Shown here: one piece after another, positions 1-63,337 of the stretch
Layout: the number at the start of each line of letters is the position of its first letter
Position numbering within the stretch: the stretch's first letter is position 1
Assembly: GCA_003971905.1 (NCBI GenBank)
Contig: RSEE01000040.1
Span: 434,001-498,000 of the forward strand
Reading direction: 5' to 3'
Length of the DNA stretch: 64,000 nucleotides
Origin: Moniliella sp. 'wahieum'
Lineage: Eukaryota
The notes under the pieces: model-generated
The model's input: only the letters and a program-made list of their open reading frames with translations
What the model was told of the DNA's origin: nothing
Database searches by the model: none
Position numbers and translations under genes: made by a program

Positions 1-2290
1 ATCATACATCATACATCATGCATCCTGGCCTGCCATACCCAGTGGCTCTAAGAGCCGCGGCGCCCCAGTACCAACATACTCGTTGCCTCAGCACGTCAGC
101 ACACTCAGCAGCGCCGCCAGAGCCTGAGCACACGGATCAACCTGATCGCGCTGATGCGTGACCGATCATCTGTGAGGCTCCTGCGCCAGCACCGAGAGCT
201 GCCCCGAGCCGCAGCAAACGGGGCGTTGGTGAATGGACAGCGCGGATAACGCGTTTAAACAAGGCTGGGATGTGTCATCGATCTCGGCGTCCTTGGTCGC
301 TACCTCCAGTGCATCATAGCTTCAGCCCCTCAGCGCTCAGCCTCCTCAACACTTCAAGGCAAAGCACCAGCCCCGTTGGACGTTGGGTGGGGCGGCGGCG
401 GCCACACATTCATTCGCCCAGGCACGCACTAATCCATTTGAGGTTCCAGATCACTGATCACATCACCGATTCCCACCGACTCGGGATCCAAAATCCACTG
501 GCCGCCTGACCGCGCATCGGTCACAAGCACTAGCCACTAGGTCATTAGCTTCACTTGACATATCACAATCACTCGTCACTAGATACTATCATATATCAAC
601 AGTCCCTAGTCCTTGGAGAATCGAGAATCGATAACCAGGAAATATTATTCTTTGGTTGCTGCTTTCAAATTGTACTAGCTTCACCCGCCCCACCGGTCGG
701 GTCACCGTCGTCATCCTCGCATGCATGACAGCGTGGAAGGGGTGGGTGATCAGTGACTGGTGATTGTAAAAACACACAGGTGCGAGACAGTGTCGGACTC
801 AGTACTCACTCACTAGGTACTCGACTCAGTACTCACTAATCATTAATCACTAGGCCTTACTCGTCACTTGGAGATCCAAACAGGCTGCGCCCCCTCGGTC
901 TTTCGGACGACGGATAGAAGTTGCTCCCCACTTCTTGTCTGAGGCTTGAGCAGCAGCTTGAGGCCTGAGGGCCTGAGGCCTTAGCCTAAGGCCCAAGGCC
1001 TGATTTGGCCACAATAGAGTGTGGGCACTGCGTGGGCCACCATCGGGTAGTGGCGGGCAAGTAGTGGCCTAGTGGCCGGTGACCACCTCTCTCAGATCAA
1101 TATCATCGTCATCAATCATCGCGGCCACGGGAAATGACGAACTCAAAGCTTATTAAGCCTTTAAGGTTTTAAGCTTTAAGCATTAAGCTTCTAGAGCGTC
1201 GAGGTTGAGCTCCAACGTGCAGCGTCAGCCCCTCAGCGCCCAGCGCCCAGCGCCCAGCCAAAATAGTAGCAAGAGACTGCCCACGCCAACAAGCGTGGCT
1301 GCAAAGCGAGAGGGACTGGCAGGCTTCCATGATACATGTGCATGACTAGCATGCTTGTGACATGCGACGTGTGACATGTGCCCGTGGCCGGTTGACAGCG
1401 ACCAGGCCCCAACGGACGTAGAGGGACAGATGGCAGCGGGAATGCGCTGCGTATGATCGATGATGGAGAGCTAGGCAAAAGTGGGCGGTGGAAGGGGTTA
1501 CACATGGAGAGGGCTTCGGGGATGCGATACCCTGCAGGGAGCATGCCAGCTCTGCATTAAGACTACAGCAGGCGCCGTGGGCTACTGTGGGGGGTGGCGG
1601 CTGCAGTTTGCAAAAACACGAACGTCGCGGCGAGGGCAGGGCTACCAGCAACAAGCCACACAGAGAGACAAGAAAGCGGTCGTATACGTACGGGGTGGTT
1701 TTCGCACTGTATGTACCGCAGGTCCCCTGGCATCGTCGTCGTTCTACACGGCGCACACACCCTTCTCGACATACGTATCACTCTTCTCGCACTTATAAGC
1801 ACTTGAGCGCTAAGCCTGGTTGCGGTTGCCGTCGAACGTTGAACGTTAAACGTTAAACACGCTGAACGTTGAGTACGTTGAGCGCAGAGCGGCGCTCAGG
1901 AGAACTATCGCAGAGGCCGATTATCGATTAGCGAGAGATCGATTACATTTTCCACGTCCGAAGCCAGAAAAAACAGGGCAGGAAGAAGGGCAGAGGGTCG
2001 CCTGTGGGGCGGTCGACAGACCAAGCGCTGCTCCTGCCACTTTTCTGTAACGTAACGAGTATGTAAAACGGGCAACGCGGAACGGGAATCCAGCCACTAG
2101 GCCACTGAGTACTGAGCAGTGAGTACGAGGGTCGCAAGTACTGGCAGTGTAATACGTGCCTGAGCGCCCGAGCGCGGCCGAGCGGGGCTGAGCCGCTGAC
2201 GCTGACCCCTTCCCCACCTCAGCGCCTCAGCGCCTCAGCGCGTTCAACGTTCAACTGAACATTCACACGTTCGCATGCTCTCATCAGACG
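1..2290. repeat. Dense field of 7-bp-period palindromic micro-repeat islands upstream of the HMG-box gene
   Basis: TCAGC-GC-TCAGC 330-341, TGAGG-CC-TGAGG 959-970, TTAAG-CT-TTAAG 1169-1180, TAAAC-GT-TAAAC 1847-1858, TCAAC-GT-TCAAC 2244-2255, plus degenerate AGTACT/ACTAGT/ACATGT runs; no credible ORF. Confidence 0.85.
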
Positions 2291-2635
2291 GCTCCAGCGA
2301 CAGCCGCTGCATCCCTGCTGGACGACAACAAGCAGGCTGGAACAGCTGTGGCTGGCTCTGACCCAGTTGCAACTGCGGTGAACGCGAGCCGGGTATATAG
2401 ATCCAGTCGACGCTCGCCTTGCCCCGTCGCGCTTCCCCCCCGTTCCGATCCCGTCTTGGCCTCCTTCCTCCCCACACAACCACCAAGCCGTGGTGCTCTG
2501 GCACCCGTACCCTCGCTTTCCGTCCGCACCCCGACGCACACTCGCCCATCCCACCACACTTATCCTCTTGCCACCGTCTCACTCCATCCCCCGCTGTCAA
2601 TTCCTTCTGCCTCCGCTTCCGCTCGACCGTCAGCG

Positions 2636-5689: not shown

Positions 5690-7330
5690 TCACGGGCCCA
5701 AGCCATTGTGGTGCAAGGCGGTGGGCGGTTCCGGGCTTGCGGTAGCCGTCGCCCTGCGCGGAAGCACCGACGCTCTCACGGCAAGAGAAGCCGACAAGGC
5801 CGTGCGGGATTGAGTAAAGAAACCAGCCGGAGTTCTCGCTGGGCTGCTTCAATCGAGTACGCATTGCCCCTGCGTGCCAAGAACACCCCCCTCAGCGCAA
5901 GAGCTAACGCGCTGCGTGCCACCTTGATCAGTGCTGCACCCTGGATCACCACAAACACCTGCTCCGGCCAAGAGGGGTTAGCTCTTCTTGTTCTGGATCC
6001 ATGGCTAAGGTGGAACACGGAGACGCATGCATTATTGTTATCTCGATTGGGTGGAGCTGCTACTCTTCACTGGAACGTGCAGCACACCCAGCGCCACCGC
6101 ATCGCCCGCACTCAGCAACAGTTTCTCAAACCCATACGTTTGGCCCGGGAGGGTACGCGGGTTCACCTGCAACGACGTACACGCAAGCGTCCATTCAACT
6201 TCTTGATTCACCTCTGGGCCCCACACCAGTTGCACCCTCTCCGTTGTCTCCTCCATCTATCCTCCGCCGTGACGTTGTCCGCTGTCGGATCCAGCTCCAC
6301 CAACCCAGCCTCTTCTTGCTCTTCCTTACCGGGAAGACTTTTCTGTCGATTGGCATCAGTCTTGGTGTTTGCATGCGTCCCTGTAACCAGTCCAGCCGAG
6401 TTGAGTTGCCGCGCTGGAAGTTTTGTTGCCCTTGTTGAAATGCAACCGGGAAAAGGCGCCTCCGCTCTTGGCGCGGTTGACGCGGTACCCTGGTTCGAGT
6501 GTCGGCTCGGGCACACCACTGCCACCTCCCTCTTCCCCTTTCCCAGGCTCAGACGACCGTATTCCGTCCATTTGCCGCGCCACCATACTAGCGGCTTGAT
6601 CCGGTGCCGCGTTACCCGTTGCAGCAGCCGTCCCTTCTCGCTCTTCTGTCCTTGCTCACGCATTCACATGCTCCTCTTTCAATTTGCTTCCCCTCTCCAT
6701 GCACGCCTCCTTCCCGCCGGCAACACCTTCCTTTTCATGTTCCCGTCCCATAGCGCGTGGAGGGGGGATATATTGGGCTTGGGAAACGGAACAACTTGTC
6801 GAAGAGTTCGACCGTCCAACTTAGTGTTGAGGCGTGCGCGCGCAGCAAGGAGCAATTCGGCCCGCTTGGGTCTTGCGTTGCTCCGAGGGTTGGGCATCGA
6901 CAGTCGACATTGCGGCACTATAGGTTCCGTTTCCGAAGCGGGAGAGGCCAAGACGAAGGTGAAGTCTTGTTTTTACCGCGCTTTTGCTCTTCAGCGCCGC
7001 GTAGCCGTGGCCGTGGGTACGTACGGGCGAGCACGAGAGCGAAAGGAACCAGGTGTGGCTATGATTTCGGGCGACCCAAGGCTGACGCTACATGGTCACA
7101 CTGTCAGCCTCATCTTTGTCCTTATCCTCATCCTCCTCAGCTTCCACCTCGGTCAGCCAGCTGTAGTTGCCCTGTTGGGGCTCGCGGCGCATGCGGTGCG
7201 AGGGCGGGCCGGGCGGGCCGGGAACAGGCGGGCCAAGGGGCGGGAGCGACCGTCGCTGGTGACATGTGCACACCTATCCTGTGTAGGTGCGGCTTCCAAC
7301 ACTGTGCTCGTAGGAGCGCGGGGCGGCCAT
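5690..7330 (-). pseudogene. MIF2: CENP-C/Mif2 kinetochore protein, apparently degenerate
   Basis: CENP-C motif-like RVTRHRIKPLVWWRGKWTEYGR (6553-6624). Cupin domain: EVEWTLACTSLQVNP..YGFEKLL..GDAVALGVLHVP..SRDN / VFVVIQGAALIKVARS..GVFLARRGNAYSIE..LFFTQSR. N-terminal VGSRT..G. Non-conservative changes (PRGN>RRGN, GE>GK), stop codons and a poor intron donor. Confidence 0.7.
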
Positions 7331-7734
7331 GGCACGCTAGAGGCGGGGGCGATGGGGGCCGAGGAGCGGCGCGTGCGATTCCCGACGCGACTGCGTTGGC
7401 GTTCCAGAAGCCCCTGTGCGCCGTTGCGCTCCAGCTAGTTCAGCCAGATCATGTCGATGATGCAATGTTGACGTTGAACGTTGAAATTTGGAATGGCACC
7501 CCAGCGTGTCATATGCCAAGCTCCACACTGCTCATCCGCGGAGACCTCAACCCTAGCCCTGATCGCCTGGGGCATGTTCAAGCTCAAAGATCACAGGTTA
7601 CCGGTTACGTCACATACCTCGCCTGCCTCTGCCCTACTCGCTGTCGCCTAGGTAGATTAGATTGGCGAGGACTGAGTGGAAAAATAACGGATGGGTTGAT
7701 TCCGGGCAATAACATCCAGCGCCACGCGGCTGGC

Positions 7735-9616
<1,882 letters not shown>

Positions 9617-10055
9617 GGCAGGCAGAGCGCAGGGGAAGGAGAGGGGGTAGGGGTGGTGGGGTTTGCTCGCTCGCCGGCCAACATGCGCCAGCGCTCCCCT
9701 GGACAGCGAGGCCGCCCGCCTGCTTTCGACTCCTGCCGCGTACGTAATCACGCCATGCTGATTCGCCCGCGGGAATTGAACGTTGCAAGGGAGGTTGTTC
9801 AATTGGTACACGGCTGCCCATGTGGTGCTGGGTCGACGCACGGAGGCTGCGAGGGTGGGCCAGGCATCATGCATCATGCATCGGTTGAGGAGGCGGATGT
9901 GCTGGGTCGGTGCAACGGCCACTGTCCGCGCCGAAGAGCGGCGTGCGATTCCGCCCTGGGGTGAGGCGGCGGAGCGGATGGGCGGCAGGCGGGATGGAAT
10001 CGGAGAGCAGCAACCCTCACACTCGATGATGCGCCGCCAGCCCAACCCTACCACC

Positions 10056-12753: not shown

Positions 12754-15268
12754 TTATGCCGTCGGCTTCAGCGTCACATCCGACAGGACTTGAATGCTTC
12801 CCGGTACACGCCCAGCAGTGACTGCACGCGCTTGCGCTCCGCTTGGATTCCCTCATCCTCTTCCAGCAGGGTAGCAAAAGGTTGTCCTTGTACAGTCCCT
12901 TGACCAGCCGGTTCTGCACCGAGTCGCGAGTAAAGTTGACGAGCAGATGCATGATCGCCTTGGGTACTAGGTCCTGAACCATCTGTCGCACCACCCCAAA
13001 GTACGATGTGATCAGCCCCTGGATCAACGACGTCTCCATCTCCTCCCGCTCCGACAATCTTGGCTCGGCTGCATCTCCAGGGATCGGAGCCGCCTCCAAA
13101 TGCTTGCCCAGCGACTTCATATCGTAGGCTGCGCTCGAACCATCCAGCCCCCCCCGTCCGGCGAACAGGCTTGTGTTCGCTCGCCCCGGCGCGACGGCAG
13201 ACGCCCCGCCCAGCGCGGCTCCTGGCCCGGCAGTCGCACCGAAAAAGTACGTAAGGAACCCGTCGCCCTGCTTGGGCCTGCCGGCAGCCGAAGGGGTGGT
13301 AGACTGCGACGAGCTCGATAACCGACCATGTCCTGGCTCGACACCGCTTCCTGTCTTGCCATATCGCCCGCCATGGACCCCGCGACCACGCGGAGGCATG
13401 CCTGCGCCCTCTTTGCCGCCATCTGCACTCAAATCGGGCGAATCGGTGTCGTCGCCCGCTAGCCCAGGCGTACGGCGACTGGGAGGGTTGCTGGTGGTGC
13501 GTGCCCGCTGCAGCTGCTTGGTTTGCTCGGCAATCGCTATCGAGTCCTGCACGAAGGATGGATGGTTGGTGTTGATATAGGCTTCCTGGATGGCAATTAA
13601 GCTCTGAACGTAATCGCACGTTGGGCCCAATCGTTCCCGTAGCAGTTCTGAAACCGCCTCGATCAGTTGGCATGCAATCGGGGGAAGCGCTGCAGTTCCG
13701 GATTGGTGATGTTGTGGCAGATCTTCATCAGCTCTTCGTATACCAGTTCCACGCAGCGCAGTGACGGCGGTTCCAGCAACTTGATCTGCGGCTTGATCAG
13801 CAGCTCGAATGCCTGTTCCGGTACAAAGAGGCTGGGACGAGGGCCTGTGCTGTTGCGAATGGCGGTGCGAATGTCCTGCACAGTCAGGTTGCTGGTCGCG
13901 TTCAATCCCTCGAGCGCATGGCCAAAGACGTCATGGAAGATATAGTAAATACGCGCGCCGCCACAGAGTTCCTTGGTCGACATCTCAAACGAGGTGCCAT
14001 CAATCGACGCAGTAAAGTCGCGAGCAAACTGCGTCATGAGCTTGAGCACCATCGCGCCCTGCTCATTCGCGTCGACAGAACCAGCATCACCAAAGGCAGC
14101 CAATTCCTGCTGTGCTTGACCCACGAGGGTGTTGAGACGTGCCTTCATGTCCGGAAGCTTTTCCCGGATGTGGTTCATAAGAACCGCGTTGAGCGTGCGC
14201 GCCAAATACTTGGTCCCTGCACGATGGGCAATGCTGTGGTACGCAGGGTGGTTTCGGAAAAACTCCTGTTCGGCCTGCCGTGCCTCAAGCATCGAGACAT
14301 TGCCATTGATGTCCTGCTGCGAGCGGTTGACCACACCGATGAAACCCAGCTTGAGCGGATAGACCCGTCCGGTGAGAATGTCCATGGCGTGCGTGCCACT
14401 GTCCATCAGATCCAGCTTGGTCAGTACCCCAATTGTCCGTTGGCCCTGCGGGTCGACACTCCGGGCAAGTTTGAGGCTATCGCTGTTGGCCAAGTCGACG
14501 TTGGCCGGCTGATGGCGAGAATGATACAGTTGGGTTTGGAAATGTAATCCAGCACCAGGTCGCGGATTTGTCGCTCAATGTCCGAGGGCTGGTCCCCGAC
14601 CGGAATCTAGCCAGAGTCAGTCGGGATCCAAACATGGAAGGGGGGCGGGGGTGGAGGGGGGGGGGGGGGAAGAATGATACACACTTTGGTCAGACCGGGC
14701 AGGTCGACAAGGGTGAGGTTGAGCACGTTGGGCGAGTGGATCTTAACATGGATCGGGAGCTTGGACACCCCTTTGTTTTGACCCGCCACGCGGAACGTCT
14801 CGTTCTCAATTTCACGGCGGATGTCGTCAAAGTTGGTAAAGCGGCGATCAAGATGGAGGAACTCACCCCACTCGGCATGCTGCGGGGGGGAGATGCGGGA
14901 GGTACCGCTGAGGCTGTCATCGAAGTGTCCGTTGGATCCGGGGGTGGTGGCGTCGGGGGGGAGGGGTGTGTGGATAAGCTGGAGCACTAGCGGGCGGCGG
15001 GTAACGATTCCGCTCCCGCGCGGGAGAAAGTCCTTCCCAACAATGCTAGGGGCGGAAACAATCAAGAGACGAGGGTCAGCGATAAGGCGATGAGGCCTGA
15101 GGCGGCGCAAACCGTCAGCGGAGGTGGCCTGGCATACTCACGTCTCGAGCACAGAAGACTTGCCCGAGCTCTGAGCGCCGACGACGACACATTGCGGCAG
15201 GTCGACCTGTCACCTCCGATGGAAGCAAACGTCTCCTGGAGCTTGTTCACCGACTCGATCAGCGACAT
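12754..15268 (-). CDS. DNM1: Dynamin-related GTPase, mitochondrial fission (Dnm1/Drp1)
   Basis: [66 protein letters not shown] domain ([13 protein letters not shown]). Introns at about 15052-15141 and about 14608-14681. Confidence 0.92.
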
Positions 15269-15818
15269 GGTGGCCGCAGAACTGCCCGCCGTGGTCGTGG
15301 TGGAGGTAGGGGGGGTGGCGTGCGCTGAAAATGGCATGTGACGGCCTCTGTTTCTGCCCCGGCCTGGCCAACCCCCCCCGCGTCAACCAACACCAGGCTG
15401 GCACTGCCCCTGTGGCACCCTCTGCTCACACTCGCATCCGAACGCGTAGCTCGCAAACTGGCGCGCTGTCTGGCGCGCCTGCACGGGGACAGTGTCAACG
15501 CAGACGACGCAAATGGCAAAATGGGGCTAGGGTTGCAGCCGTGATATAATTTCTCCAGATCCTAGGTTTTTATCGTATCCGATCTCAGAAGCCGAGGCTC
15601 CCGAGCCTCACTCAGGCCTCAGGCTCAGGCCTCAGGGCCTCAGGGTCCCGGCAACGGATCTATCGTGTGCGTAGTGTCCAGCCCTGTCCGGCCTCACAGC
15701 GAGGCGTCACCGTATCGCGTTCGACCCTATCTCCCAAGGAAAATCGTCAATCGATACAACTAATGAAGGAGCCCATCCTGAACTGCTCAGCGATGATAAA
15801 GTCCATCCACGGCGTCTA

Positions 15819-18991: not shown

Positions 18992-19474
18992 GTCTGCGAG
19001 AGAGAAATTACATTCATCCAACCTTGTCTTCCGTTTCGTTTGGCGCTCATGCATGATATGTCATCTTCTGTCTGCCTCCCCTTGTGATCCGTAGTAGTAC
19101 TGGTATGGCATACGATTGTTAAGTGTGTGCCCCCATAGCGAATCGAAGACGATTAGCAGGTGGCGTGGAAGTATAAGGCCGTGGGCGACGAAAGCGGGAA
19201 ATCGGTCAAGAGGCCGCAGGTCACGGTGACCGGTGACCCTCTCTGGCATAGCAACAACTCCCCGCCTTGGTTCGGTGCAACTTTCCCCGCTCCTTCCGCC
19301 CACGCGCACAGCTGCGAGTGGGGTTCCGCAGGCCATTTTTTTTGCGGGAGGCGGCACAGACGGCCGACACAAAGCGACTAGTGACTGCTGCGACCTGATT
19401 GGCTGCAACCCACAACTTGGCCGCCGTTCCCTTCCTGTTGCCACCACCTTGGACACCTACTATACCACCCCGCC

Positions 19475-22630: not shown

Positions 22631-22819
22631 GGGGAAGGACAGAAGGGGGTGGTGGGAGGGATGGAGGAGTGGCGGGCCGTGGCAAGGCTGCCAACTACAC
22701 ACCGCTGGACGAGAAATGAACGAAAACCAACACGGAGCACGGCACCAGTGTGAGGCATGCGCGCCAGCTGGACACTGGCCCTGCGCTCGTGGTGGATCAG
22801 GAGGGTCACCGGAGGCTGC

Positions 22820-23160: not shown

Positions 23161-23400
23161 CGCGTCAGCCTGTCACACGTCCCGCGGCCGCACCCAAGCA
23201 GCGGACTGGTGCCTGTGGAAAACAGCTGATTCTTCGGATTTGTCAGCCTCCCCCGTCTCTTCTCCGCGGCCGTGTGTTTTCTCCGCCGCTTCTTCGCATG
23301 GACATAGCTGTTTCTGACCTTGCAAATTACACGTTGGCCGGCCGTCCCTACCGCCACCACCACCACCCCCGCTCCTTCCCCTTCGTCTCTCTGGGCCAGC

Positions 23401-39839: not shown

Positions 39840-42110
39840 ACTAACAGTGACCGTATCGTGGTGGACTTGGACGAAATCGACTTTGTTGCCTTGATTGCCA
39901 CGTTCAGAATCGACGTTGGGGCAGGTCTATCCGGGTGGACCCAGCCCCTCCTACTAACGGCCCTTGAATGCAAGCGCTTCGTCGCCTTTCTCACCGCCCT
40001 CACCAAGAGTATTTACCACGGCACCGCCCCAGGACGCGAGCTCCTGTTGGCCTCCCGCCTCACCCCCCTGGAGAAGGCATCGGGAGGCATCCGCCCCATC
40101 GCCTGTGGGGAGCTGATCTACCGCCTGTGCGCCAAGGCCATCGCTCGAGCGATCGCCCCAACAGCTGGCTTCTCCCCACCCAGTTGGGAGTAGCATCGCA
40201 AAACGGGGTGGAGCCTATCGTACGGATGGTCGAGCGCATGACAGCGCCAGGCGGGGAGAACGATGCGGAACTGGGCGACTTCAGCCACGTCGCCATGCTC
40301 GACTTTACCAACGCCTTCAACACTGTGCGCCGTCGCACACTCGCCAAGGCGCTCCATGCCTACGCCCCCCATCTCCTCACGTTGGGCCGATGGATCTATG
40401 GTTCCCCCACCCAGCTCTGGGTCGCGTCGGGCGGAAATGAGACCAACGTCCTGTCGGCAGAGGGCGTACGGCAGGGCGACCCCCTCGCCCCCTTTTTCTT
40501 CTCCATCGCAGTGCGGCCCACGCTGGAGAAACTGGAACAGGACCTGCCGCCGGGGCACCTGGTGATGGCATACCTGGACGACATTACGATCTTCGGTCCA
40601 GGGCCAGGCATTACCGGCCTAGCCGCGGAGATTTTGGAAGACGACGCGTCAGGCCTCAAGCTCAACCTGCGCAAGTGTGTCGAGCGGGACCGGGACCAGA
40701 TTCGGGTGGATGGTCTGCAGGTTCTGGGCACTTGTGTGGGAGGGGTAGACTGTCGTCGATCGTGGCTCCGGGCCCAACTGGCCAGTCTGAGGGAGAACAT
40801 GCCTAAGTTTGATGGCATCACCCGCCAGGGACGCCTCTTACTATGGCGGCTCAGCACTCAGACCAAGCTGCGCCACCTGCTCCGCACCATGCAGATGGAA
40901 GGAGAGCTAGACGACGTGCTGGCCGAGATTGATGCCTTCATCTGTACGGAGTTCAGACGGATCCGGGGCGACGAGGATCCCCAAGGTGCCAAGGACGACC
41001 ACTTCGACATGCTCATGAGCCTGCCTCTTCGGCTGGGAGGATGTGGCAGCCCGCTTTACTCGTATATTGCGCCCCACGCCCGTGCCGCGGCCAACGAGGT
41101 CAACGACTATCTTATTACCACTTATGTTGACCGTTCGGGACCGCAAACGGCAAGGGCCAACGCATTTACGAAGCAACGCCAGCGCTGCCGCGAGATGTGG
41201 GAGCAAAGTCGACAGGAGCTGCTCCAGAAGCTGGACGCTGCCGATGGTCGTCATGTGGTTGAGCACAGCAACCCGCTGAGCCACAACTGGCTCTCCGCTA
41301 TTCCATCCGTCCCGTACCTCAAGCTCTCTGACCAGCAGGTCCAGGTTGGTCTCCAGCTCCGCACGCTGTGCCGCACCACGCGCAGCATGTGCAAGTGCGG
41401 CGTCATGTCCTCGCTGGAACACATCATGTCCTGCACCCGCACCCAGGCCAAGTTTGGTGCGTTGCATGAGGCAGTGCGGGAGCCCATTCTCCAGCTCCTC
41501 CGCTCCATCCCCGACCCACGTCCACAACGAACCTATGGTGGAGGAAGAGGATGGGACGAGGCGCGGACGGAAGGCACAGCGCACCGATTACCGCGTGATG
41601 GGGCCCGGAGCACTGGGAGGAACCGGAATGGAGGTAGACCACACGCTGCGCGACACGGGATCGCAGGAGGCGCAGAGCGCGTACCGGCGGGTGGTGCATG
41701 AGAGCACTGCGTCGCCTTTGGAACGCCGGGAGAAGGAACTGCTTCGGCTGCTTGAACAAGCAGAATGCGACAAGAACGCCAAGTACCAGGGACGCACTCA
41801 AGAACCGTTTTTCCCCTGGTTTTGACGACGCGAGGATACTACGGCACCAAGACGGCGGGCAAGTTGTTTGCGCATTGGAAGGAGTTGGCTACTAAGTCTC
41901 AGTGGAAATGGTTCCTCGCTCGTATGTCAACCACGTTCCTCCGTGTCCACACGCGCTTCCTAGGGTACGGGACCGGATGGCGTGAGCCGGAGGGTCCTGA
42001 TATCCTGGCGATCCCCCTGGTCCCTTAATCTTGGTGGCGCTTCCAAGTAACCCCCGCAAGATGAACGGTTCGGTTTAGACGTAGCGTTCCCCCTGTCCCA
42101 GCCTTAAGCT
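39840..42110 (+). mobile_element. Non-LTR retrotransposon, CRE/Cnl1-like, with RT, zinc knuckle and restriction-like endonuclease; 5'-truncated
   Basis: RT motifs LEKASGGIRPIACGE, QLGV, LDFTNAFN, GVRQGDPLAP, AYLDD, GLKLNLRKC, VLG. Then LPLRLGGCG, CCHC (CKC..EHIMSC) and RLE signatures (HEAVRE, QRTD, EVD, KNAKY, FFPLVLTTRG). Stop at 42028. Three frameshifts. Both ends approximate. Confidence 0.9.
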
Positions 42111-42119: not shown

Positions 42120-43575
42120 ATATGAATTCAGAGAAGAGTCTGATTTTTGGAAAGATCGTACATCTTGCCCAGAGGCTTATGCGACCCTCGGATCAAGATT
42201 GACGCCAAAAACATTCCCCCTATACTGTCACATAGGGAACCTCTCTTTTCCCGATGCGGTCAGCATCGCCTCGGTGCCCGACCCGGCCAAAGCCAAGGAC
42301 CAGACACAAGCAGCGTCCCGGGAGCGTTCGCTCTCATACATGGGCCTGGAGCCCAACACACCCGTAGAGCAGGTCAACAAGATTGACAAGGTCTTTATTG
42401 GGTCCTGCTCCAACTCGCGCATTAAAGATCTGCGCCGTGCGGCCCAGGTGCTCCACGGCCGTCACGTGGCTGAGAGGGCGTACGCCATGCGGGTGCCCGG
42501 CTCCGGCTTCATCAAGAAGCAAGCGGAGACTGAGGATTTGGACAAGAGGTTGAAGGAGGCTGATGAAGTTGACTGATGATGTGAGGCACAGGCTGCTCCT
42601 AGGAGGTGCTTGGGCCTGAATATTGAATTCAGACCAGCTGGCCGCTGGCGGCGAGGGGTGCGCCTCTACGTCCAACTGCAGCTTTGAATCCCGTCAGGGC
42701 CCAGAAGGACGCACTCCTCTTGTATCGCCTGCCATGGTCGCTGCTGGCGCTCTGACGGGGCGTTTGACGGATGTACGGACTCTTCCTGCTGGCAAAAGGC
42801 GGCGGCACATGCCCAAGTGGAGACTGCGAATGCCGCGCAACTAAAGCGTTCCTCTCCCCATCTCAGGCCCCACCTGCGCTGCAAGCCAAGGACCCACAAC
42901 CTCCCGTTGACGTACTCGCCCACCAAACAGATGAGAACCGTTTGGAGGATGTGCCGGCCAGGGAGTAGGCGACGGTATGGACAGCGGTGGCCTACAACAG
43001 TTTACCACCTTCTCAGGTATTGCCGTGCCAATGGGGCGGGTGAATGTGGATACGGATTTGATCCCTTTGCAGCCAAGCTCCTCCAAGTGATTCCTCGCTT
43101 AGGCTGGGGTGTCACAGCCTGTTGAACACGTTGGGGACAACAAGGATGATACAGGGCCACTCAATCCGGACTTTGTTTTGAACCAAGAGCCCTGGTCGCA
43201 CGCCAAGTTTGGGGTAACAGGGCCCAATTGGGGTTGCGGCTCGTCGCGCGAGCATGTCACTTGGTCTTGGCTCGATTTGGGCATCCGTGCTGTCATTGCG
43301 CCCTCGATTGCCGACATCCACGCTACCAATCTGGCAAGGAATGGCATTTTGGGGGTGGTGCTGCAAGCAGAGGTGGACCAGGTCATGGCGAGCACCAAGG
43401 CGGATACGACGGTGACGGTGGACTTGGAAATGCAAATTAAGCGGTTGTGCTGGAGGATGGATCGCGCTTCTCGTTCTCCATCTCTTGAGTTTACCATACA
43501 AGTATTGTCTTCCCAATGGTCTGGACGACAGTAGTCTCACGCTCCGATATGAGGCGAGCATTGCCGCCTTTGAGC
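42120..43575 (+). pseudogene. LEU1: 3-isopropylmalate dehydratase relic lacking its N-terminal part
   Basis: [48 protein letters not shown] (vs STSNRNFEGRQG), [42 protein letters not shown]. Trp>stop changes, small insertions and a wrecked GCSMCLGMN Fe-S motif. Confidence 0.88.
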
Positions 43576-43790: not shown

Positions 43791-45352
43791 TTATGTCCAC
43801 AACACAGAACCTTGGGCGAGCCGTTGGAGGTAGGCCAGGCCTTCGTTGGCTGACTGTCAAAGGAATAAAGGTCAGCCACGTTTTCCTATAGGTAAATGGA
43901 GGAGAATGTCAACGTACTTGGCTCGCTTGTCGTTCCTTTGCTCGCTGTTGCTTCAGCACCTCAATCTCTCGTCGTAGGTCGAGTACAATGCGGCGGCGGG
44001 CAAAGACGTCCTGACGCAACTGGCGCTGGTAGGCGCGTGAGCGTTCAAAGTGAGCAATCATTTGTCGTCGACGGGTGGCCTTGGCACTGAGTACGCGAAA
44101 CTGTTCCCGCACCAGCGAACGGATGGCGCGCAACGAAACGCCCAGGCCATTATTCGGTGCACTCCGTACGCTCTCCTTCAACTCGCCGTCGACCAAGGCC
44201 CAAACCACATCGGCGTCGGTCAAGCGTTCGGCAATGCTCTTGCGGCGACCAGGACGCAGCCCGGCCTCGGCGGCAGCCATCGCGCCTTCCTCATCTTCCG
44301 ACTCGGACGCAAGCAATCGTGTCGCAGCACGCAGCCGTTTTCGGAACGCCTTCCCACCTCGCAACGTCTGGGTCTCCAGTAATGTTGGCTGACTGGTTGA
44401 CGCGTCGGCTAGAGGTGTCTTGCGGGGGCGACCACGTTTACGTGGGACGGCTTGGGGCTCGGTCTGGACCTTCCGTTTGGGCTTGCGTTGAGGCGCACGT
44501 ACAGGGGCAGGGGCTTCACGTGGGTCAAATGGAGGCTCGTCCGGTTCCAAGGGCGGCGGGGTGGGGACCCGCAGAGCCTCCCGAGCTGGTTCTGCCGACT
44601 TGCGTGGCCGACCAGGTCGTCTGCCCCCGGCCTTTCCCTTCGTTGCCGCGGAGGCCGAAGGGCGTCCGCGCTTGGGGGGCGGTGCAGCGGAAGCGCTTGC
44701 ATCTCCCCTTTCATCACGGGAAACGGACGCGTCGGCATTGCCAAAGGGCAACATCGCTTGCACAGCCTTTTTGGTTCCGGACCGCAGCGCGTCGGTGGCG
44801 GAAGAGATGCGTTTTTTCGCCGAAGCGGCGCTGCTCGGCTTAGGCTTGGGCTTGGGCGTGGGCTTGGACTTGGGGCTGGCGGGCTTCTTGGTGGGCGGGG
44901 CGCGTTTGGGCGCAGCTGACCCCCTGGAAAAGGATACACTCTTGCGCTGCCCAGACGCTGGAGCTTTGGCACGGCGAGGGGCGGGAGGGGGCGTTGGGCC
45001 AGAGGCGTGGGGGGCATCTACGGGACTGGGTGCATGCGGCGAAGGCTGGGGGTTGGCGTTGCCGCTGGAGCGACGGATGCGGACGCGGACGCGTGGGGTA
45101 GAGCTGGTATTGGGGGATCCTGCGGGTGCCCCGCTGGAGCGGCGCACAGGCACACGCACGCGGGGGGAGCGGCCGTCGGGGCGGCGGGCGACCTGGAAGC
45201 GGAACTGGCTGGCAAAGGAGCTGGCGGCCGGCGGCTGTGCTGGAGGGAAGCGGGTCAGCGTTGCACGCACCAACAGAGGCAAAGACTCACCCGGATCCGC
45301 GCATGCGCTCGAGGGCACGCTGGGCGTACTTGTGGCCGGGTCTGCTGGCCAT
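43791..45352 (-). CDS. AT-hook protein resembling the kinetochore subunit CENP-U/Ame1
   Basis: N-terminal MASRPGHKYAQRALERMRGSG (Ame1-like R.RG motif), AT-hooks KRGRP/RPGRPRK/KRGRPRK, LTDADVV segment and C-terminal coiled coil. Introns at 45240-45290 and about 43853-43917. Confidence 0.55.
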
Positions 45353-45736
45353 GGCGGAGGGGGCGGAGGGGGCGGAGGGGAGGAGGAGGAGGAGGAGGAG
45401 GAGGTGGTGGTGGTGAGGCGGTGGCAGCGACGTGAACAGCGCGTCCGCTTGCTTTGCACTGGCCGCGACTGGCGCCGAGGCGGCTGCGCATTGAACGTTC
45501 AATTCGCGCGCGCCATCATGCATCGCACATCACGCGTGTCTGCCTTCAACTTTAATGTTTGTTGCGCCCGCAACGCCTGAAGCGGTGGGTCACGTGCGGG
45601 CTCTGGCGTGCGTTGGTTGGGTTGCGTGACAAAAATCAATCGCCGCCGCCTCGTCTCGGCTGGCCGCCACCGCTGCCTTCGCCTGGCGCAGCCCGCGCCC
45701 TGCTGTGCCCAGCCCCTCTGCCCTCGCCCCGCCCCC

Positions 45737-48032: not shown

Positions 48033-48034
48033 TT

Positions 48035-48124
48035 TGGACGGCGAGGGGTTTGAACCCCCGGCCTTCTACATTCGAATCACGTGAGGAATGCAAAGCAGAC
48101 GCTCTACCACTGAGCTAGCCGCCC
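48035..48124 (-). tRNA. tRNA-Ala (anticodon TGC) with an 18-nt intron at 48071-48088
   Basis: GGGCGGC/GCCGTCC acceptor stem with G3:U70, D-arm GCTC-AGTGGTA-GAGC, anticodon stem TCTGC/GTAGA, T-loop TTCAAAC, discriminator A. Intron lies one base 3' of the anticodon. Confidence 0.96.
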
Positions 48125-54292: not shown

Positions 54293-54470
54293 CCAATCCA
54301 TTCCAATCCAATCCAGTACAGTGCAATGCAATGCAGTGCAATCCAATCCAATCCAATCCAATCCAATCCAATCCAATCCAATCCAATCCAATCCAATCCA
54401 ATCCAATCCAATCCAATCCAATCCAATCCAATCCAGTACAGTGCAATGCAGTGCAATCAAGTAAAGTCAA
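54293..54470. repeat. Compound pentanucleotide microsatellite (ATCCA)n
   Basis: About 19 perfect ATCCA units at 54341-54435, flanked on both sides by in-phase GTACA-GTGCA-ATGCA variants. Confidence 0.97.
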
Positions 54471-54499
54471 GTAGGATACACGGTAACAGCGATCATCGC

Positions 54500-55960: not shown

Positions 55961-57424
55961 GGCGGTGGTGGTGGCAGCGATGGAGGCGCGCTGGCCGGCG
56001 CCGGCATGCCCCGTGTGCGAAGGCGGGGAGGCGAGCAGCCCAACCCTAGCCCACGTGGTGGGCGCCGCCGTGCGGGGCCGTGCCGATCCCTCGCCGTAGG
56101 CACAGCGCCAGTGTCGCTCTTCTGCCCCGCACTTGGCGGGTGACGCGTGACACGTGACGGGCGCTAGTCACCGGTCCCTGGCCACCGGCTCCACGCCTGA
56201 AGTGTGATCTTGAAATCTCAACCAGTACCCAGTATAACGCGGTACCCCCACCAAGTACACCCCGTGCGTGGTACGTCCGCTCCCAGCAACTCCTGCACAT
56301 GATGGTCGAGGCGCCGCACCCATTTGCCGAGCGCCCGACATCCCACCCAGGTACCCACAGCGCTAACCGGCCCCCGTCCATGCAAACGAAACGTGTAAGG
56401 TGCTCTCATTGGCGGATCTGCATTACAGTCTCTCGCGGCATGCTTGTCACGGCGCAGATTCTACCCACACAGTGGATGAACAGGACGAGCACATTGCGGA
56501 GAAAGAATAATGGCTCTGCATGGAAGAGCCTGACTCTTTGGTGTTCTCTCGGGTGGCCACAGCACAGTCCCCAGTCTACCTCCTGGGACGAAGGCAGCAC
56601 TGGTATATGCGCATCCTCCCCCGCTCAGCACTCATTTGGTCAAAATCCGTCATTAGACCATACTCACAGGCAGGCTTCTTGACCAACTCTGAACTCCAGT
56701 TGCTGTACGACACCACAGCTTCCGTACAACACGACGTTCGCCGGTCCCACAGCTCTGGAAGACGGTTTGCCGTTGTTTAGCAGTGCAAACTACCATCTTC
56801 CTCTACTCTGAGTGTCGATCTCACCCACTTCGTGTTACTGCTTTATGGATACGGGGGCGTACGTGCCCCCCAAAAAGAAAGACAACTGCTGCGTGGATGC
56901 CGTCTGGGATGAGCGCATCCCCTCGAGATGCCAAAGGGCCACCATCAGCTACTGTATATAGCGACATCCACTCGTCCCAGGTCCAGTGGTTTGACTACCT
57001 CTGCTGCACCTTTCAGCCCATTCCACGTCCTTATGAGCTCGAAACGAGTGTCGACTGCCTCCGCTCTGGTAGGCGGAGTCGCCCGTTGGACGCGGTCCGG
57101 GCAGAGATGGTCAAGCAGCCCCCGTTTTCTTGCAGCGCATCCCTTCCCCCGAGGCTGTCAACGATACCCTAGCGGGTGCTGTGTGAGATGTGAAATCGAT
57201 GGGAGCTGGATTCGATGTTCGACGTTTGCTGCGGATGGTCTCACGTCGTAGCACGCCGCAGACGGGCATCACAGGCACATCACCCCCCGTCCTGAATCGA
57301 CCCGCGTCCGATCGGTGCAATGCCCTGCACCACTTTTTCACTGCCGTCGCTCCACACCACGTGGCAGGGGCCCAGCGGCTGACGCCCGACATCTTGCCTC
57401 CCCTCCACCACCGCACCTACCAGC

Positions 57425-57707: not shown

Positions 57708-58812
57708 ACCGAAGGTACCCCGAAGGTGCTGTACCATGGCGCGCCCCCCTTCCGCCTCTTTATCTGCCCTCCCCCCTTTCCCTGACAGTCTGGCCTGGCC
57801 TCTCCGCCCCCGACCAGATTGTCGTCCTCCCTCTCTTGTTGTCGCTCACGGGCCAAGGAGCCATGCTGTAAGCATGCGTCTTCCATCCAGTCAGATCGGG
57901 TCATACTCATAGCCGGCTAGTGATTCTGTTCTCATCGACCGCGGCCGCTCGAGGTAAAAGCATTCCTTATTAGCGCTCGGAGGCAAGGCACGCACCTGAA
58001 CCACGCAGGCTATACTGGTATTGACTACTGGCACAACTGAACGGTTTCATGATTCTGCGTTGCTTATACTCTGGATCTGATGGCTGGACACGCGACCGTG
58101 ACGGTTCGGTTACTTTTGTTGAACCTTGACCGCCACCTAAACGTCTCTCGTTGGCACTGCCACAGTCACATGCCATCCCATCACAGAGAAGGCAAAATCG
58201 CAAAGCAAAAGAACCTTGGGGGGGAGTAAGAGAAGAGATACTCTTTCGTAAGAGAACTGGCGGAGCGGTTGGAGGCGAAATGCAAACTAAGGGAGGCGGA
58301 GGAGGCAGAGTAGGGGGAAGGGCTGGAGTATAACATTTTCAATTCATCTCAAAACCGAGGAAGCGCAGGACCGATACCTATAACGCTGCGATAGACGGAG
58401 ATGGGCCTTCTCCTATATGAGGAGAGTCACCACCTATATGGCCTCAGACTCGTCGCTGTTCGATACAAGACCGCCGCGAAGGCACCGGTTCGGTCGCGGC
58501 GCAGACAGCAACGCCCTCTCATGCCGAGGCACCCGCTCGGTCCGGCGCAGACCTCCAAGCCCTCCAAGAGGCATAAGCCCTTCCACACGGTGAACGCCAT
58601 CCTCACCTAGAGCTTGCTGCCGCCGGCCAGCGCCTTGCCCTCCTGTAGCCCACAGCTACCTTTCCTCTCCCAGGGAGAAGGGGGTCGACCGTTTCTCTAC
58701 CAGCGTAGTAGACGTTTCAGTCGGGCTGCACATTGGTTCTTCAACAATTTATGGCCTTGCCCTTGACAAGAATCGCCCTATATGCTCCTTCCCCCCTACC
58801 GACACTCGCTCC

Positions 58813-58903
58813 CATGGTGGGCTGTCTGCGCGCATGGTGGGGATGGCCGCCTGCATGGTGGGAGTGTTCGCCCGCATGGTGGGAGTGTTCGCCCGCATGG
58901 GGG
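58813..58903. repeat. 21-bp tandem repeat, about 4 units
   Basis: CATGGTGGGAGTGTTCGCCCG perfect twice (58854-58895) with diverged flanking units. Confidence 0.85.
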
Positions 58904-59340
58904 CGCTGCCCAGCATTCGTCTACTTTGGCCAAGATCATCTTCCCACTCACCCATTCTTGCCGGCGGCTCATCGTCCGGAAGGAAGAGCAATGGTTACAT
59001 GGCCTTTCCCTTTCAACTGGCTTACACGCCGGCGTGCTGCCTTAATTCCCGCTCCCGCGCATACAGGCCCACGCCGCCTTGAGCCAGCAATCACGCTCGG
59101 TGTACGCCTCTCGTCAACAAGGCCACCATCTCACGCTCTTCCCACCGTCCACCTGAGGTGACCCTTCCTTGAGGATAAGGGAGCCCGTCATTGAAGAAGG
59201 TGTTTACTATCTCGGCGGCCTGCATCCTAAATCCTACATCCACGCTTCTTCCACACGAGACTGGTGGGGCTGTTCGACCACGGCACCTCTGCCATGTGCC
59301 CGTTCTTCATCGCCTCATCCGCATCCGTCGTGGTGGGGGC

Positions 59341-59968
59341 TGTTGGGGCGATGCCCCATCAAGCCATTCTGCGTGATAGGCATCACCCCTCTTTTGTCCG
59401 GAAGCTCCCTCTGCTCAGCGATACCCTCGGCTGTAGAAAGCCCTACCCTTCTCACACCCTCCTGTATCTCTCCTCAGATCCTCAAAACCACATATTCCAT
59501 TATCCTCCCTCCTTCAGCACGGGACGCACTGCCCCGATGCATGTGTGTACCTGGCCACGTCCGACTAAAGGTCGATGGGCTCGGGGCTGCTGGTGACCGA
59601 CAGCTCTTCCTCAGTGGTACTTGACATGAATCTCACAAATTTCCGACTCAATACGGCAGTGCAGTTCCTTTATTTGAGCCTCGATGCTTCTAAGCAATAC
59701 CGACCTTCCTGCTCTCAGCATCCCTTCCTAACTTTGGACCGATAGAAAGGGTCCAACTTGCCCAGTATGATCATATATCCATTGAACGACCTTCCCGTGT
59801 CGAACCATTTTGAGCAGAAGGGGGGGATAGCGCGGTAGCGGGGGGCGGGGGCTGGGAGCGCGCGTACAGTACCACGAAGGCACGGCAATGCAGAGGGAGC
59901 GTCCGGACGGATAAAGTAACGATGATGCCTATCACGCAGAATGGCGTTATCGGGGTCCTGCCCCAACA
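59341..59968. repeat. Imperfect inverted repeat pair (59341-59414 and 59890-59968)
   Basis: 23-bp perfect core GCCATTCTGCGTGATAGGCATCA (59363-59385) with its reverse complement at 59923-59945; flanks also align. Confidence 0.9.
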
Positions 59969-60779
59969 CTATCGTTTTCACGAATCCACAGTCTTGCACC
60001 CATATTCACTAATAGCCATCATATTCGTGCTCGCTCCGTTTTTGATGGGCTTCTGTTAGTGAAGGTTCATGAGGATTGAAGGCACCAAGGATCCCATTCT
60101 CCAGGATCTCGACAGCACAAGTGGTCATGCCTGGTTCTCAGTGGCCCTCTTGGATCCAATGTGGGAAGAATAAGATTCAACGTTCAACGCTGGATAGAAT
60201 CGCCATCGAACCGCCCGGTCCCGATCAGCATTACCAGGCGAGAAGTTATACGAGACGCGCAACTCTATACTAACCAGTTCCGGTGCCCGCGACATACGGC
60301 CGACGATCAAGCCATCATACATCACACACATCATGCATCACACATCACATGTCACATCACACCAAATGGTGTCACATGTCACATGCCACCACACTCCAAC
60401 AGCAGTGCTGACTCCTTCCAACCTGGACATGCTTCGAGTTGCAGAACACGTGCATTTGACCATTCCATTCAAGACGTTTTGTCCTACACGGTTGGTCTGG
60501 TGAACTAGGGGCGCCCGCACCACCAAATAAGTAAAGAAGAGATATTGATGAAAACACACAAAATGTGGCTAATACACTGAAGTGTGTGTGTCTACCGATC
60601 CCACACTGTAGCAGACGGTTCGCATAGAAGAAAAGGGTGGCCGCCTCGCAAAAACTGGGAGGGAAGAGAAGCTGGAGCCCTGTATCCAAAATCCCTCCAG
60701 TACGCAGACAGAGTTGAAGACGGAGTACGAGCAATTCACTCTTTGTGGCCGCCAGAAAACAAAGGAAGGTTGAAGCGAA

Positions 60780-62304
60780 ACGCTTAGGTCTGTTGGTCTT
60801 GTTGACGTGGGGGCCGAAACCAATGTTGGCGAAGGTGCCAGCCTGGTTACCCAGACGCTGAAGCGATCCGATGATGTCAAAGCCCAGGATGCCGTCCAAG
60901 GCCAGGGTTCCGGCGTTCAAGAGAGACGGAGTGGGCTCGCCACATGGGAGGGGGCTGAGGGTGTGGCCGTTGAGGCTGAACACCTCCAAAACGAAACGCA
61001 TCGCATTGAGGTCACCACCAATAACAAGTTGAGGAGCTGTGGGCGTTGGCAGTGTAAACGTTGAACTGAATGTTAGCACCGTTTGGCACTGTTGCTTCAC
61101 GTACTCGTTAACAGCGTCAAAGCTGATCACATCATCGGCCGATCCGTGGTAGATCATGCGAGGGAACTTGGGGTAGCCAACACCAACCGAAGACTTGTTA
61201 TTCCAGAGCGTCTCACGGTCCAGGACGGTGCGGAACGGCTCCCAGTCGTAGACACTGCCACCACCGGCACCTGGATCATGTTGAGGTAGGACTTGCCGGA
61301 GTACTGAGGACCACGGAGGTGGAGTGGCAAGTAGGGGGTTGGTAATGGTCGACAAGTCTGCACGAATCGATCCACCGCCGTACTGCTCAATGGCTTCCTT
61401 GAACGACTTGTAAGCAACGATCATACCGTGGATACCGCCAATGGTGAAACCAGAGAAAGAGGAGCCGTCAAAGTGCTTCAGGGTAAGCTCCATGTCAATG
61501 GGGGGCCACCGTGGGTGACACCAACAATGTTGAGCTCGGGAGCGTAGCTGGGAGCCAAGTTAGCCGCCCATGCAGTGACGTGAGCGCCCTCGAATAACCC
61601 GTCATGGCAACCTGGGCGTCGGGGGCCCAGTTAAGTGCCTTGCGGACAGCGCGCGCAGAGTCGAGAATGATGTAACCCGCAGTGAAACCAGAGAACAGCG
61701 CCGACTTGGGTCCCTCATAATCCGGAACCACCACGCTGATGCCGTTGCTCAGCAAAAAGTCAAACCATATGGGCACATCGTCACCTGTGTGTTGCGCAAT
61801 CAGTCAGTCGTAGTCCATGGGTCGACCATAGTTGTCGATCACAACTAACGTACCGACAACCATAACGTTGGGGGCAGTGGGGCCCTTCAAACAGTGTAGG
61901 AGGGCGCGCAGTCGCGTTGAGTCGAGTCCTCCCACAAGTGGTAGGAAAGCATCTTTTGCTTGCCTCCAGTAGCGGGTTGAATCACAGTGGTGACAGACGA
62001 GGAGGGGTGACCAGCCGAGTTGGTGGTGCGGAAATGGATCTGGTAAGATTGCCCACATCGACAAGACCAGTCATGGCAGGCTTGATTTCGCGCATCTCAA
62101 TGATGTCACCAGGCTTGTAGTGGCTCAAGTTGTGAGGAGCCCGGTAGAAAGGATCCTGGAGAGGAGGAGGGAAGTCCCGAGCGAACACCTGGTGCCGGTT
62201 AGCCCGAGACAACCCACGACGGTTCGAGGCGGCGTCGACACCGTTGGTGAGAGCCGCCAAGATCGTGGCCACCCCCACAACGGAGAGGAGAAGGTAAACT
62301 TCAT
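60780..62304 (-). CDS. Secretory lipase (LIP family, alpha/beta hydrolase)
   Basis: Signal-peptide-like N-terminus, PPLQDPFY, LSYHLWEDS..DCAPSY, VVVPDYEGP, LDSARA, nucleophile region GYS(G)GAH..WAA..APSYAPELNIVG, PKFPRMIYHGSADDVI. 3' end uncertain. Confidence 0.88.
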
Positions 62305-63337
62305 GTTGAGAGAAAGAGCGTGGGTGTAGCGAGGGAAAGAGGGTGAATGGAGGGTGGTGGGGGTGGGTGAGAGGAGGGAAGAGGAGGGAGGGGGGAAGGA
62401 GGAAGTGTTCGTGGGTGAAATCAAAATGGTCGGGGTTTGTGTGCCAGTCATATTTATCTGTATCCGGAAATCACAATACAAACCCTCTGTCGAGGTACGG
62501 AGTAATAGGCACAAATATGGGTGGATTGTGTACAAGAGGAACACGGAAGGTGGGATGCCCCACATTCTTGATTCGCTGGAAGCTCTGGCCCTATGAATCG
62601 ATCGCTTTCCCCCATCATACATCACCGGTCGGCATGTGATCAGGCTGCACGGGGAGTGTGTCCATGGTGTGCTTATAGTCGCCAAAGATCGGCACCACTA
62701 AGTACTAATACCACTGTGGCTGTGCCAAACTGCTGAACTGTGAGTACTCAGACTGCGTGCTGAGTAGTACGGAACGTCACATATGCGTACCTGCCTTCCT
62801 CCCAGCGCTCTGCAGGCCAATCTTCAAGCTTCCAGTTTCAGAGCTTCATCTAGGATCATCGATTGTTATACGTGGTGGGGCCCAGAGCTCTCCTTGGGGG
62901 ACCGGCAAGAGTTGCCTCGGTGTTCGGGTTCGATTGCTCGGCGAATAAGACGGTTGTCCCCATGATGATCTGCATATGATCGCCGAGAGCCACCACAAAA
63001 AATGCCCACAACGGTGTATCTGCGGTTTCGGGAGCCCAGCGTCGCTTTTGAGAGAAACCCCATATGGTTCCGTGTGACACGAAGCTTTCAGAACTTGTAC
63101 CGCACTGCAGAGCTCGCATTTGCCCCCACCCGACGGATAGATTGAAGCGGACAGGGAATAGGCCAGCTATGGCATGCAAATGTGGGTAAAGCGTTGACAT
63201 AGTACACGCTGCCGCCACCTTGTCTCTGCGGATGCCTGATCCGGGAAATTGGTTGTTGCGTATAACAAGCAGTAGACGGTGTCCACAACAGCTGGTATTA
63301 CGCTTTCAGCTTTCGGCACCATGGCATCGGGCAGAAT

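Follow-up and report, generated by a model that had tools for sequence, protein, structure and literature searches.

Why should many short non-coding stretches of one fungal contig, which differ from each other in sequence, all obey a single rule? The stretch in question is a window of 64,000 nt (contig RSEE01000040.1, positions 434,001–498,000), which we analyzed along with 71 contigs for comparison. A preliminary description of this window noticed that 5-mers of the form TNAxy are duplicated between genes, and that the two copies are joined by the reverse complement of the last two bases: TNAxy-y'x'-TNAxy, where x' and y' are the complements of x and y. It took these 12-mers to be the scars of transposon excision or break repair. 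We found that this is a real and strong pattern with an exact geometry, and that it has a simpler description: it is a direct tandem repeat, with a period of 7, of the odd palindrome y'x'TNAxy.

All 16 of the strings quoted in the preliminary description are present where it reported them, and several recur elsewhere in the window. For the (TGAACGT)n array, Tandem Repeats Finder (TRF) reports 6.7 copies with a 92% match (29333–29378), including a perfect run of 30 nt (29349–29378). Exact TNAxy-y'x'-TNAxy 12-mers number 30 on the + strand, or 33 when reading the - strand. This is far above chance: across 60 simulated sequences for each order of Markov model, the mean count was 0.15 (order 1), 0.07 (order 3), or 0.33 (order 5), and the maximum was 2. 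The palindromic joint and the T-N-A anchor, both of which had been singled out, each survive comparison with their alternatives. If any two bases are allowed as the spacer (TNAxy-NN-TNAxy), then there are 41 sites, and 30 of them have the palindromic spacer (1/16 expected). If the bases on either side of the center are changed from T and A (which we will call a T.A center), then the equivalent structure is found once with A.T, once with G.C, and not at all with C.G.

Other ways of counting give the same picture. Identical 6-bp palindromes that are 1 base apart occur 9 times, and every one of them has the form A....T; for gaps of 0, 2, 3, or 4 bases, the counts are 2, 0, 1, and 0. There are 373 duplications of 5-mers at lag 7, versus 80 under the order-3 null. 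And if we consider the 4 nt between a pair of TNAs, 73 of 181 fillers are palindromic, versus 11 expected, while for fillers of 2, 3, 5, 6, or 8 nt the number of palindromes is as expected. The longer fold-backs that were also pointed out are present, but they are not special: TGA..TCA and TCA..TGA each occur 12 times at distance 7, versus about 10–12 expected, and pairs of both kinds are at the null level across all distances.

To describe the repeats without assuming a 12-mer, we considered all maximal runs with period 7 of at least 12 nt. There are 173 such runs, and in 61 of them the unit is palindromic in some rotation. These 61 have T.A centers in 51 cases, A.T in 4, C.G in 3, and G.C in 3; from random 7-mers of the window, we would expect just 4.8 runs of the T.A kind. 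Periods of 5, 6, 8, 9, 10, or 11 show no excess of palindromic units. Most of the 51 T.A-palindromic runs are short, with 43 having 12–15 nt and a mode of 12 nt (16 runs). The longest arrays have 4.3 perfect copies or 6.7–8.1 degenerate copies. The runs tend to start at y', x', or T (36 of 51). The original 12-mer is the overlap core of two head-to-tail copies of y'x'TNAxy, and this unit is equivalent to a 6-bp palindrome (Axyy'x'T) plus one base.

The units themselves are diverse. By hand count from the list of runs, there are 29 different 7-mers; of the 16 palindromes of 4 bp that could serve as fillers, 14 are seen; and the four bases are used about evenly at x and y. As the preliminary description had argued, a single transcription factor motif is excluded by this diversity (29 units, 14/16 fillers, all four bases at x). 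We also rejected an array of transcription factor sites, as there is no shared consensus.

Several features show that adjacent copies are related by descent. Among the 73 10-mers that have a 4-bp palindrome between two TNAs, the center base N is identical in 58 (and is C or G in 47 of those 58). Similarly, the 5-bp core recurs at distance 7 in direct orientation in 44 cases and as its reverse complement in 2. The arrays are thus heptanucleotide tandem repeats with head-to-tail copies that share descent, which makes a mutational origin plausible. TCA..TCA pairs at distance 7 number 48, versus 12 expected, and TGA..TGA pairs number 44, versus 11 expected; there are additional peaks at distances of 8, 14, and 21. 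Furthermore, the repeat extends to the left of the 12-mer: in 53 oriented 12-mers, the preceding base is x' in 37 cases (25% by chance), and the two preceding bases are y'x' in 20 cases (6% by chance). At a larger scale, the largest island of repeats (see below) includes a 28-nt, or 4-unit, higher-order duplication (35176–35231), which is internal evidence that arrays may change by multiples of 7. TRF also found periods of 14, 21, and 28. We think that these arrays are best filed as short tandem repeats of a new sort.

We considered some simpler origins for the unit and rejected them. If T-N-A had arisen from C-N-G by deamination, then half-converted centers should be seen, but we found 4 with T/G, 9 with C/A, and 4 with C/G, versus 51 with T/A. 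Hairpins in general do not account for the pattern either: non-tandem 11-mers with T.A centers are only mildly raised (16 versus about 9 expected), and those with A.T centers are raised equally. So the signal is the tandem arrangement, not the hairpin itself. Finally, we rejected a 4-bp duplication with 3 palindromic nucleotides (P-nucleotides): N is preceded by T in 30 of 36 and 33 of 42 cases, which makes T part of the repeat.

A minor class of arrays has a period of 8 (962–978, 2217–2241, 28065–28103, and 34927–34980). These have cores of CTCAG or CTGAG with a GC-rich spacer of 3 nt; an example is (CCTCAGCG) with 3.1 copies. The 5-bp core is found at distance 8 in 9 cases, versus 44 at distance 7.

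Where are the arrays? An excess of autocorrelation at lag 7 fills entire stretches of 0.3–2 kb, and these islands together make up about 8.6% of the window. Within islands, the perfect runs are surrounded by eroded versions of the same heptamer or of related ones. The islands are intergenic and are found on both the 5' and the 3' sides of genes, and by coordinates none of the arrays is inside the residues that align to Pfam families. No island is a copy of another: in a self-BLAST of the window, only the GAACGTT array was common, and no dispersed repeat family links them. Single T.A-palindromic heptamers are about 3 times denser in the islands (42 in about 5.5 kb, versus 133 in about 58.5 kb), in a comparison where the islands were themselves defined by lag 7. 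The islands and arrays are listed here, with no strand assigned to any of them; where starts are given, they are the starts of T.A-palindromic runs.

200–2260: heptamer island 1, with a lag-7 excess of 0.06–0.17 in each 300-nt interval from 201 to 1901; it lies upstream of long + strand open reading frames (ORFs) starting near 2192–2348; runs start at 329, 587, 797, 824, 837, 959, 970, 1168, 1453, 1834, 1842, 1918, 2104, and 2241.
7300–7800: heptamer island 2 (lag-7 excess 0.07–0.09), in the 3' spacer of the V-ATPase A gene (- strand, 7738–9747), with runs at 7471 (GTTGAAC) and 7596 (GGTTACC).
9864–9882: array of (CATCATG) with 2.7 copies, about 190 nt upstream of the start of V-ATPase A.
15091–15636: arrays of CCTGAGG (15091) and CCTCAGG (15611 and 15624), located both at the 5' end of the gene for dynamin (- strand) and upstream of it.
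19224–19238: array of (GGTGACC) with 2.1 copies, between the M24 peptidase gene and NOG1 (both on the + strand).
22700–23300: heptamer island (lag-7 excess 0.07–0.16), flanked by a Ras-family gene (- strand) and a dihydroxy-acid dehydratase gene (+ strand), with runs at 22975 (GGTCACC) and 23146 (ATTGAAT) and TRF arrays at 23030–23086.
27800–28700: heptamer island (lag-7 excess 0.08–0.16), with runs at 27923, 27962, 28089, 28453, and 28461.
29100–29910: heptamer island (lag-7 excess 0.08–0.12), with runs at 29349, 29593, and 29895, including the longest perfect array (GTTGAAC/TGAACGT, 29349–29378).
34100–35600: the largest and densest island (lag-7 excess up to 0.22), upstream of a promoter-like ordinary stretch (35600–36100), with runs at 34326, 34592, 34789, 34965, 35019, 35035, 35143, 35183, 35204, 35217, and 35312.
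39071–39496: arrays of CATGATG (39071) and ATTGAAT (39485), upstream of the reverse-transcriptase ORF.
42617–42628: array of ATTGAAT between two aconitase-family exons, probably in an intron.
56140–56151: array of CGTGACG.
60100–60600: heptamer island (lag-7 excess 0.06–0.12), at the 3' end of a LIP-family lipase gene (- strand, 60375–61803), with runs at 60176, 60329, 60345, and 60370.
62697–62708: array of ACTAAGT.

Lag-7 stretches were also seen at 15500–15800 and 56100–56400, and for two of the listed islands the lag-7 stretch itself covers about 200–2200 and 29100–29600. If each array is read in the sense direction of the closest gene with Pfam support, N is a purine in 13 of the 17 arrays from 7471 to 62697, so that they read TGA or TAA; as these arrays are clustered and not independent, we treat this polarity as a weak lead. 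N also tracks the local GC skew, with a mean of +0.05 for purine N and -0.10 for pyrimidine N. An identical 12-mer, TGAATATTGAAT, flanks the reverse-transcriptase ORF (39968–41698) at 39485 and at 42617, and there is a third copy at 23146. The aconitase-family exons (42121–43531) begin at position 299 of the profile, and the N-terminal part was not found upstream.

The window is nuclear DNA from an intron-containing fungus, with 59% G+C. Genes were identified by comparing 300 ORFs of at least 96 amino acids to Pfam, along with homologues for dynamin, and the gene models are incomplete. The map of longest ORFs does not separate coding from non-coding sequence in such GC-rich DNA, and a map based on codon usage is conservative, with 30% of the window called as coding. 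Pfam identified exons of V-ATPase A subunit, dynamin, M24 peptidase, NOG1, a Ras-family GTPase, dihydroxy-acid dehydratase, an aconitase-family protein, a RING protein, a mitochondrial carrier, Sfi1, and a LIP-family lipase, as well as the one reverse-transcriptase ORF. The dynamin exon is 83–86% identical to proteins from Pseudozyma flocculosa, Jaminaea, Violaceomyces, and Ustilago, and 94% identical to an assembly protein. Given these similarities, we treat the host as a yeast-like basidiomycete within the Ustilaginomycotina, with no close named relative. A scan of the window with Rfam found a single tRNA and nothing else. This tRNA gene (48035–48124, - strand) probably contains an intron, as the match has 90 bases and the model has 71 positions.

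The bias towards T.A centers is absent from the other fungal and eukaryotic DNA that we compared. The comparison set was 71 metagenome contigs (586 kb) that encode relatives of the dynamin exon, none of them close (82% protein identity at best). Among 694 period-7 runs in these contigs, the palindromic centers were T.A in 18 cases, A.T in 18, C.G in 17, and G.C in 17, which is the pattern expected by chance. And the TNAxy-y'x'-TNAxy grammar occurs 6 times in the 586 kb, versus 30 times in the 64-kb window. In the literature on palindromic heptamers, fungal heptanucleotide microsatellites, intergenic palindromes of Ustilaginomycotina, and 7-bp duplications, we found no description of this pattern, but most subscription journals were not covered, so this is no proof of novelty.

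We propose a lineage-specific process in which self-complementary heptamers are duplicated in tandem (+7) and expand, in spacer DNA that is free of constraint. We put the probability of this proposal at roughly 45%. Long spacers would be composed of short, fast-decaying arrays with period 7, of which the freshest would be head-to-tail duplications of y'x'TNAxy. Arrays would be born and would grow by +7 tandem duplication, either because mini-hairpins aid slippage and realignment during replication, or by the fill-in of a 7-nt staggered break at a symmetric site. They would then change in multiples of 7, and would be eroded by point mutations, surviving only where the spacer DNA is unconstrained. 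We infer both the mechanism of duplication and its neutrality. Because the unit is self-complementary, two copies (a TNA between two 4-bp palindromes) can fold on either strand into a stem of 4–5 bp with a T-N-A triloop. Indeed, the single-stranded fold of 35010–35240 has stems of 4–5 bp with T-N-A triloops and is much more stable than the folds of shuffled sequences (z = -5.9). Ordinary non-repetitive DNA lies beside the islands, such as the non-coding stretch at 35500–37100 with its TATA-like box and pyrimidine tracts and no periodicity: this is what we would predict if only the least constrained DNA tolerated arrays.

Some of the data weigh against this proposal. Slippage alone does not predict the T.A rule, since units with A.T, C.G, or G.C centers are equally self-complementary, and these account for just 4, 3, and 3 runs. 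Runs with T.A centers that are not palindromic are not enriched (11 versus 21 expected with one complementary pair, and 22 versus 16 with two). A stem of 4–5 bp is weak, and for a second island the folding advantage over shuffled sequences is modest (z = -2.7). Also, 30 of the 51 runs have less than two full units (12–13 nt), which implies either heavy erosion or that the 12-mer is the primary product. There are big non-coding stretches without arrays, so targeting or function could explain the distribution equally well. The purine polarity of N (13 of the 17 clustered arrays) is not predicted by simple neutral slippage. And the evidence is from a single 64-kb window. The restriction to T.A points to a protein or to a very specific property of the DNA. 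We also considered that an endogenous DNA-processing activity, such as a domesticated transposase or recombinase or a defect in repair or replication, adds one 7-bp palindrome per event at symmetric T-N-A sites in open spacers, but we think that this more specific idea is quite unlikely.

In one alternative, an enzyme resembling a DDE transposase or integrase or a recombinase, with a preference for certain sites, would make 7-nt staggered cuts around T-N-A in accessible spacers; fill-in and rejoining, or the exact loss of an element, would leave adjoining target duplications, which slippage would extend. The fixed geometry and the strict T.A rule do suggest a protein rather than the thermodynamics of DNA, some DDE enzymes have a symmetric target preference with a central T-N-A, and the arrays are limited to discrete islands in spacers. 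However, the symmetry of the flanks would not be explained: x and y are used about evenly, and a protein cannot read "any palindrome." Arrays with 3–7 copies would require additional events, and the window has no transposase, no element with terminal inverted repeats, and no matching target duplication. To our knowledge, excision does not leave the duplicated target intact in any transposon superfamily. Overall, enzyme scars of this kind seem unlikely. We have about the same opinion of the idea that the heptamers, or their hairpins or cruciforms, are selected cis-elements that slippage merely multiplies, perhaps for excluding nucleosomes, as bidirectional promoters or terminators, or to provide stop codons in several frames of flanking transcripts. 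This would fit with intergenic islands that adjoin promoters and 3' ends, with the 3-fold density of single heptamers in the islands (which lag 7 defines), with the TGA or TAA that 13 of the 17 arrays near known genes show in the sense direction, and with the folding potential at 35010–35240. But 29 different units exclude any one sequence-specific factor, and N is copied rather than free (58/73), as would be seen with duplication by descent. Non-tandem T.A-centered palindromes of 11 bp are only mildly raised (16 versus about 9); the strand polarity may be compositional, as N follows GC skew; and the fast decay of the copies suggests weak constraint. An artefact of assembly or sequencing is hardly credible, given the graded decay, the 29 units, the restriction of arrays to spacers, and the intact neighboring genes; we know of no error mode that produces such patterns.

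The model in the preliminary description, spelled out, is that the 12-mers are excision footprints, in which 5-bp TNAnn target duplications are joined by P-nucleotides from hairpins that were opened 2 nt off center, as with Transib, RAG, or hAT enzymes. Its appeal is that it yields a palindromic junction of arbitrary sequence without any sequence recognition, and that it accounts for fresh arrays that begin at the last TNA of an older array (35019–35055). Also, 12 nt is the modal length of the runs (16/51), with 12 of these 16 runs in exactly the phase of the proposed footprint. But a two-unit array that lost a match at one edge would give the same phases under our detection rule, so the phase is not decisive. 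The enzymology that was invoked is confirmed by excerpts of two papers: hairpins on flanking DNA are formed by hAT, Transib, RAG, and MULE enzymes, and target duplications of 5 bp are made by Transib and RAG (PMC5499845, PMC1131882). One of these excerpts also states that Transib and RAG targets are preferentially GC-rich, which does not match the T.A centers of 51 of 61 palindromic runs, and that, as of 2005, Transib/RAG in fungi were known from soybean rust only (PMC1131882).

The junction itself does not behave as a footprint should. Its length is fixed: if we count a 5-mer, the reverse complement of its last m bases, and the 5-mer again, there are 3, 5, 30, 0, and 0 cases for m = 0, 1, 2, 3, and 4. 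Footprints of end joining are expected to vary in length. The junction is also one-sided, with P-nucleotides from the other flank in 1 and 4 cases, versus 30 and 33. A footprint should have a fixed duplication of 5 or 8 bp with unrelated sequence outside, but the duplicated block is more than 5 bp, as it continues leftward (x' in 37/53 and y'x' in 20/53), and the unit is a 7-bp palindrome. Arrays with many copies (4.3 perfect or 6.7–8.1 degenerate) and islands that are periodic throughout are at odds with footprints as well. Nor did we find the elements: 946 candidate pairs of inverted repeats in the 64-kb window, checked for direct repeats, gave only chance arms of 10–13 bp, and the 300 ORFs in the window had no transposase domains from Pfam, with a single RVT_1 reverse transcriptase as the only match to a mobile element. 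So although a mutational origin for the repeats is still the idea that we favor most, the mechanism of hairpins, P-nucleotides, and 5-bp transposon duplications fails in its specific predictions, and we consider it very unlikely.

How do these arrays compare to known systems? As far as hAT, Transib, RAG, and MULE footprints are characterized in the excerpts cited above, the likeness is the direct duplication with a short, arbitrary palindromic junction, and a 5+2+5 parse is possible; the differences here are the fixed one-sided junction, the 7-bp unit, the many copies, the T.A center, and a window that is free of such elements. PIF/Harbinger elements (Tourist, mPing) share a trinucleotide of the T-N-A type at the site of the event. 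An excerpt of PMC4561436 describes their 3-bp target duplications as TTA/TAA and their excision as generally precise and scarless; we rejected them as the source because the period is 7, because 47 of the 58 cases with identical N have C or G there, and because of that precise excision. Ordinary microsatellite or minisatellite arrays that arise by slippage also have head-to-tail copies, change by whole units, and decay by point mutations. But ordinary satellites have no rule for the sequence of the unit, whereas the fresh arrays in this window are nearly all odd palindromes with T.A centers, a bias that is absent from the 586 kb.

The other comparison is to the GGGNATC heptanucleotide repeats of Xanthomonas and Nostoc, which, in the excerpt of Rehm et al. 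2015 (PMC4692102), have a G-rich, quadruplex-forming unit and a preference for four units. Judging from that excerpt, both systems have 7-nt tandem units that are enriched in non-coding intergenic DNA, beginning at two units, with a polarity relative to ORFs. But each bacterial genome has one unit, with up to 26 units in an array, and the structure is a quadruplex, while here a eukaryote has 29 palindromic T.A units, mostly in 2 copies, and a hairpin is the structure that they might form. We therefore do not place these arrays in the G-rich bacterial class, given the 29 palindromic units, the lengths of 12–15 nt for 43 of 51 arrays, and the fungal host.

If the pattern is genome-wide, it would be a mutational signature that can be counted and that has an exact geometry (+7, a T.A center, and palindromic flanks), pointing to a specific molecular cause. 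It would also mean that local duplication alone can produce kilobases of intergenic DNA, and it would give eukaryotes a counterpart of the puzzling excess of heptamer repeats that has long been noticed in GC-rich bacteria. The arrays would serve as highly variable markers, and they could influence the spacing of promoters and the formation of hairpins or cruciforms beside genes. If an endogenous activity did turn out to be responsible, then the fungus would be making new intergenic DNA with a sequence-specific mutator that it inflicts on itself, and the signature of this mutator could be read directly from the genome.

The window has other features of note. There is a pentanucleotide microsatellite, (CCAAT) with 28.6 copies and a 93% match, at 54293–54435, followed by (CAGTG) with 4.4 copies at 54434–54455. 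A minisatellite with a period of 21 or 42 (4.2 or 2.4 copies) is at 58806–58904 (CATGGTGGGAATGGCCGCCCG). Perfect inverted repeats of 23 bp (59363–59385 and 59923–59945) enclose 537 bp, with their outer ends 583 bp apart and no flanking direct repeat visible; this pair may be a small foldback element or resemble a miniature inverted-repeat transposable element. From 26000 to 34000, the GC skew is strongly positive (+0.17 to +0.20), and there are long - strand ORFs that do not belong to any Pfam family and may encode low-complexity proteins. Two of the dynamin exons are separated by sequence that includes a G-rich run of about 30 bases (14635–14672). Finally, a 10-bp palindrome, TGAACGTTCA, is at 45492–45501, where a - strand ORF (43912–45498) and + strand ORFs that begin near 45556 are separated by a very short gap. 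It contains GAAnnTTC, which we take, from the match to the motif, to be a candidate for the shape of a heat-shock element.

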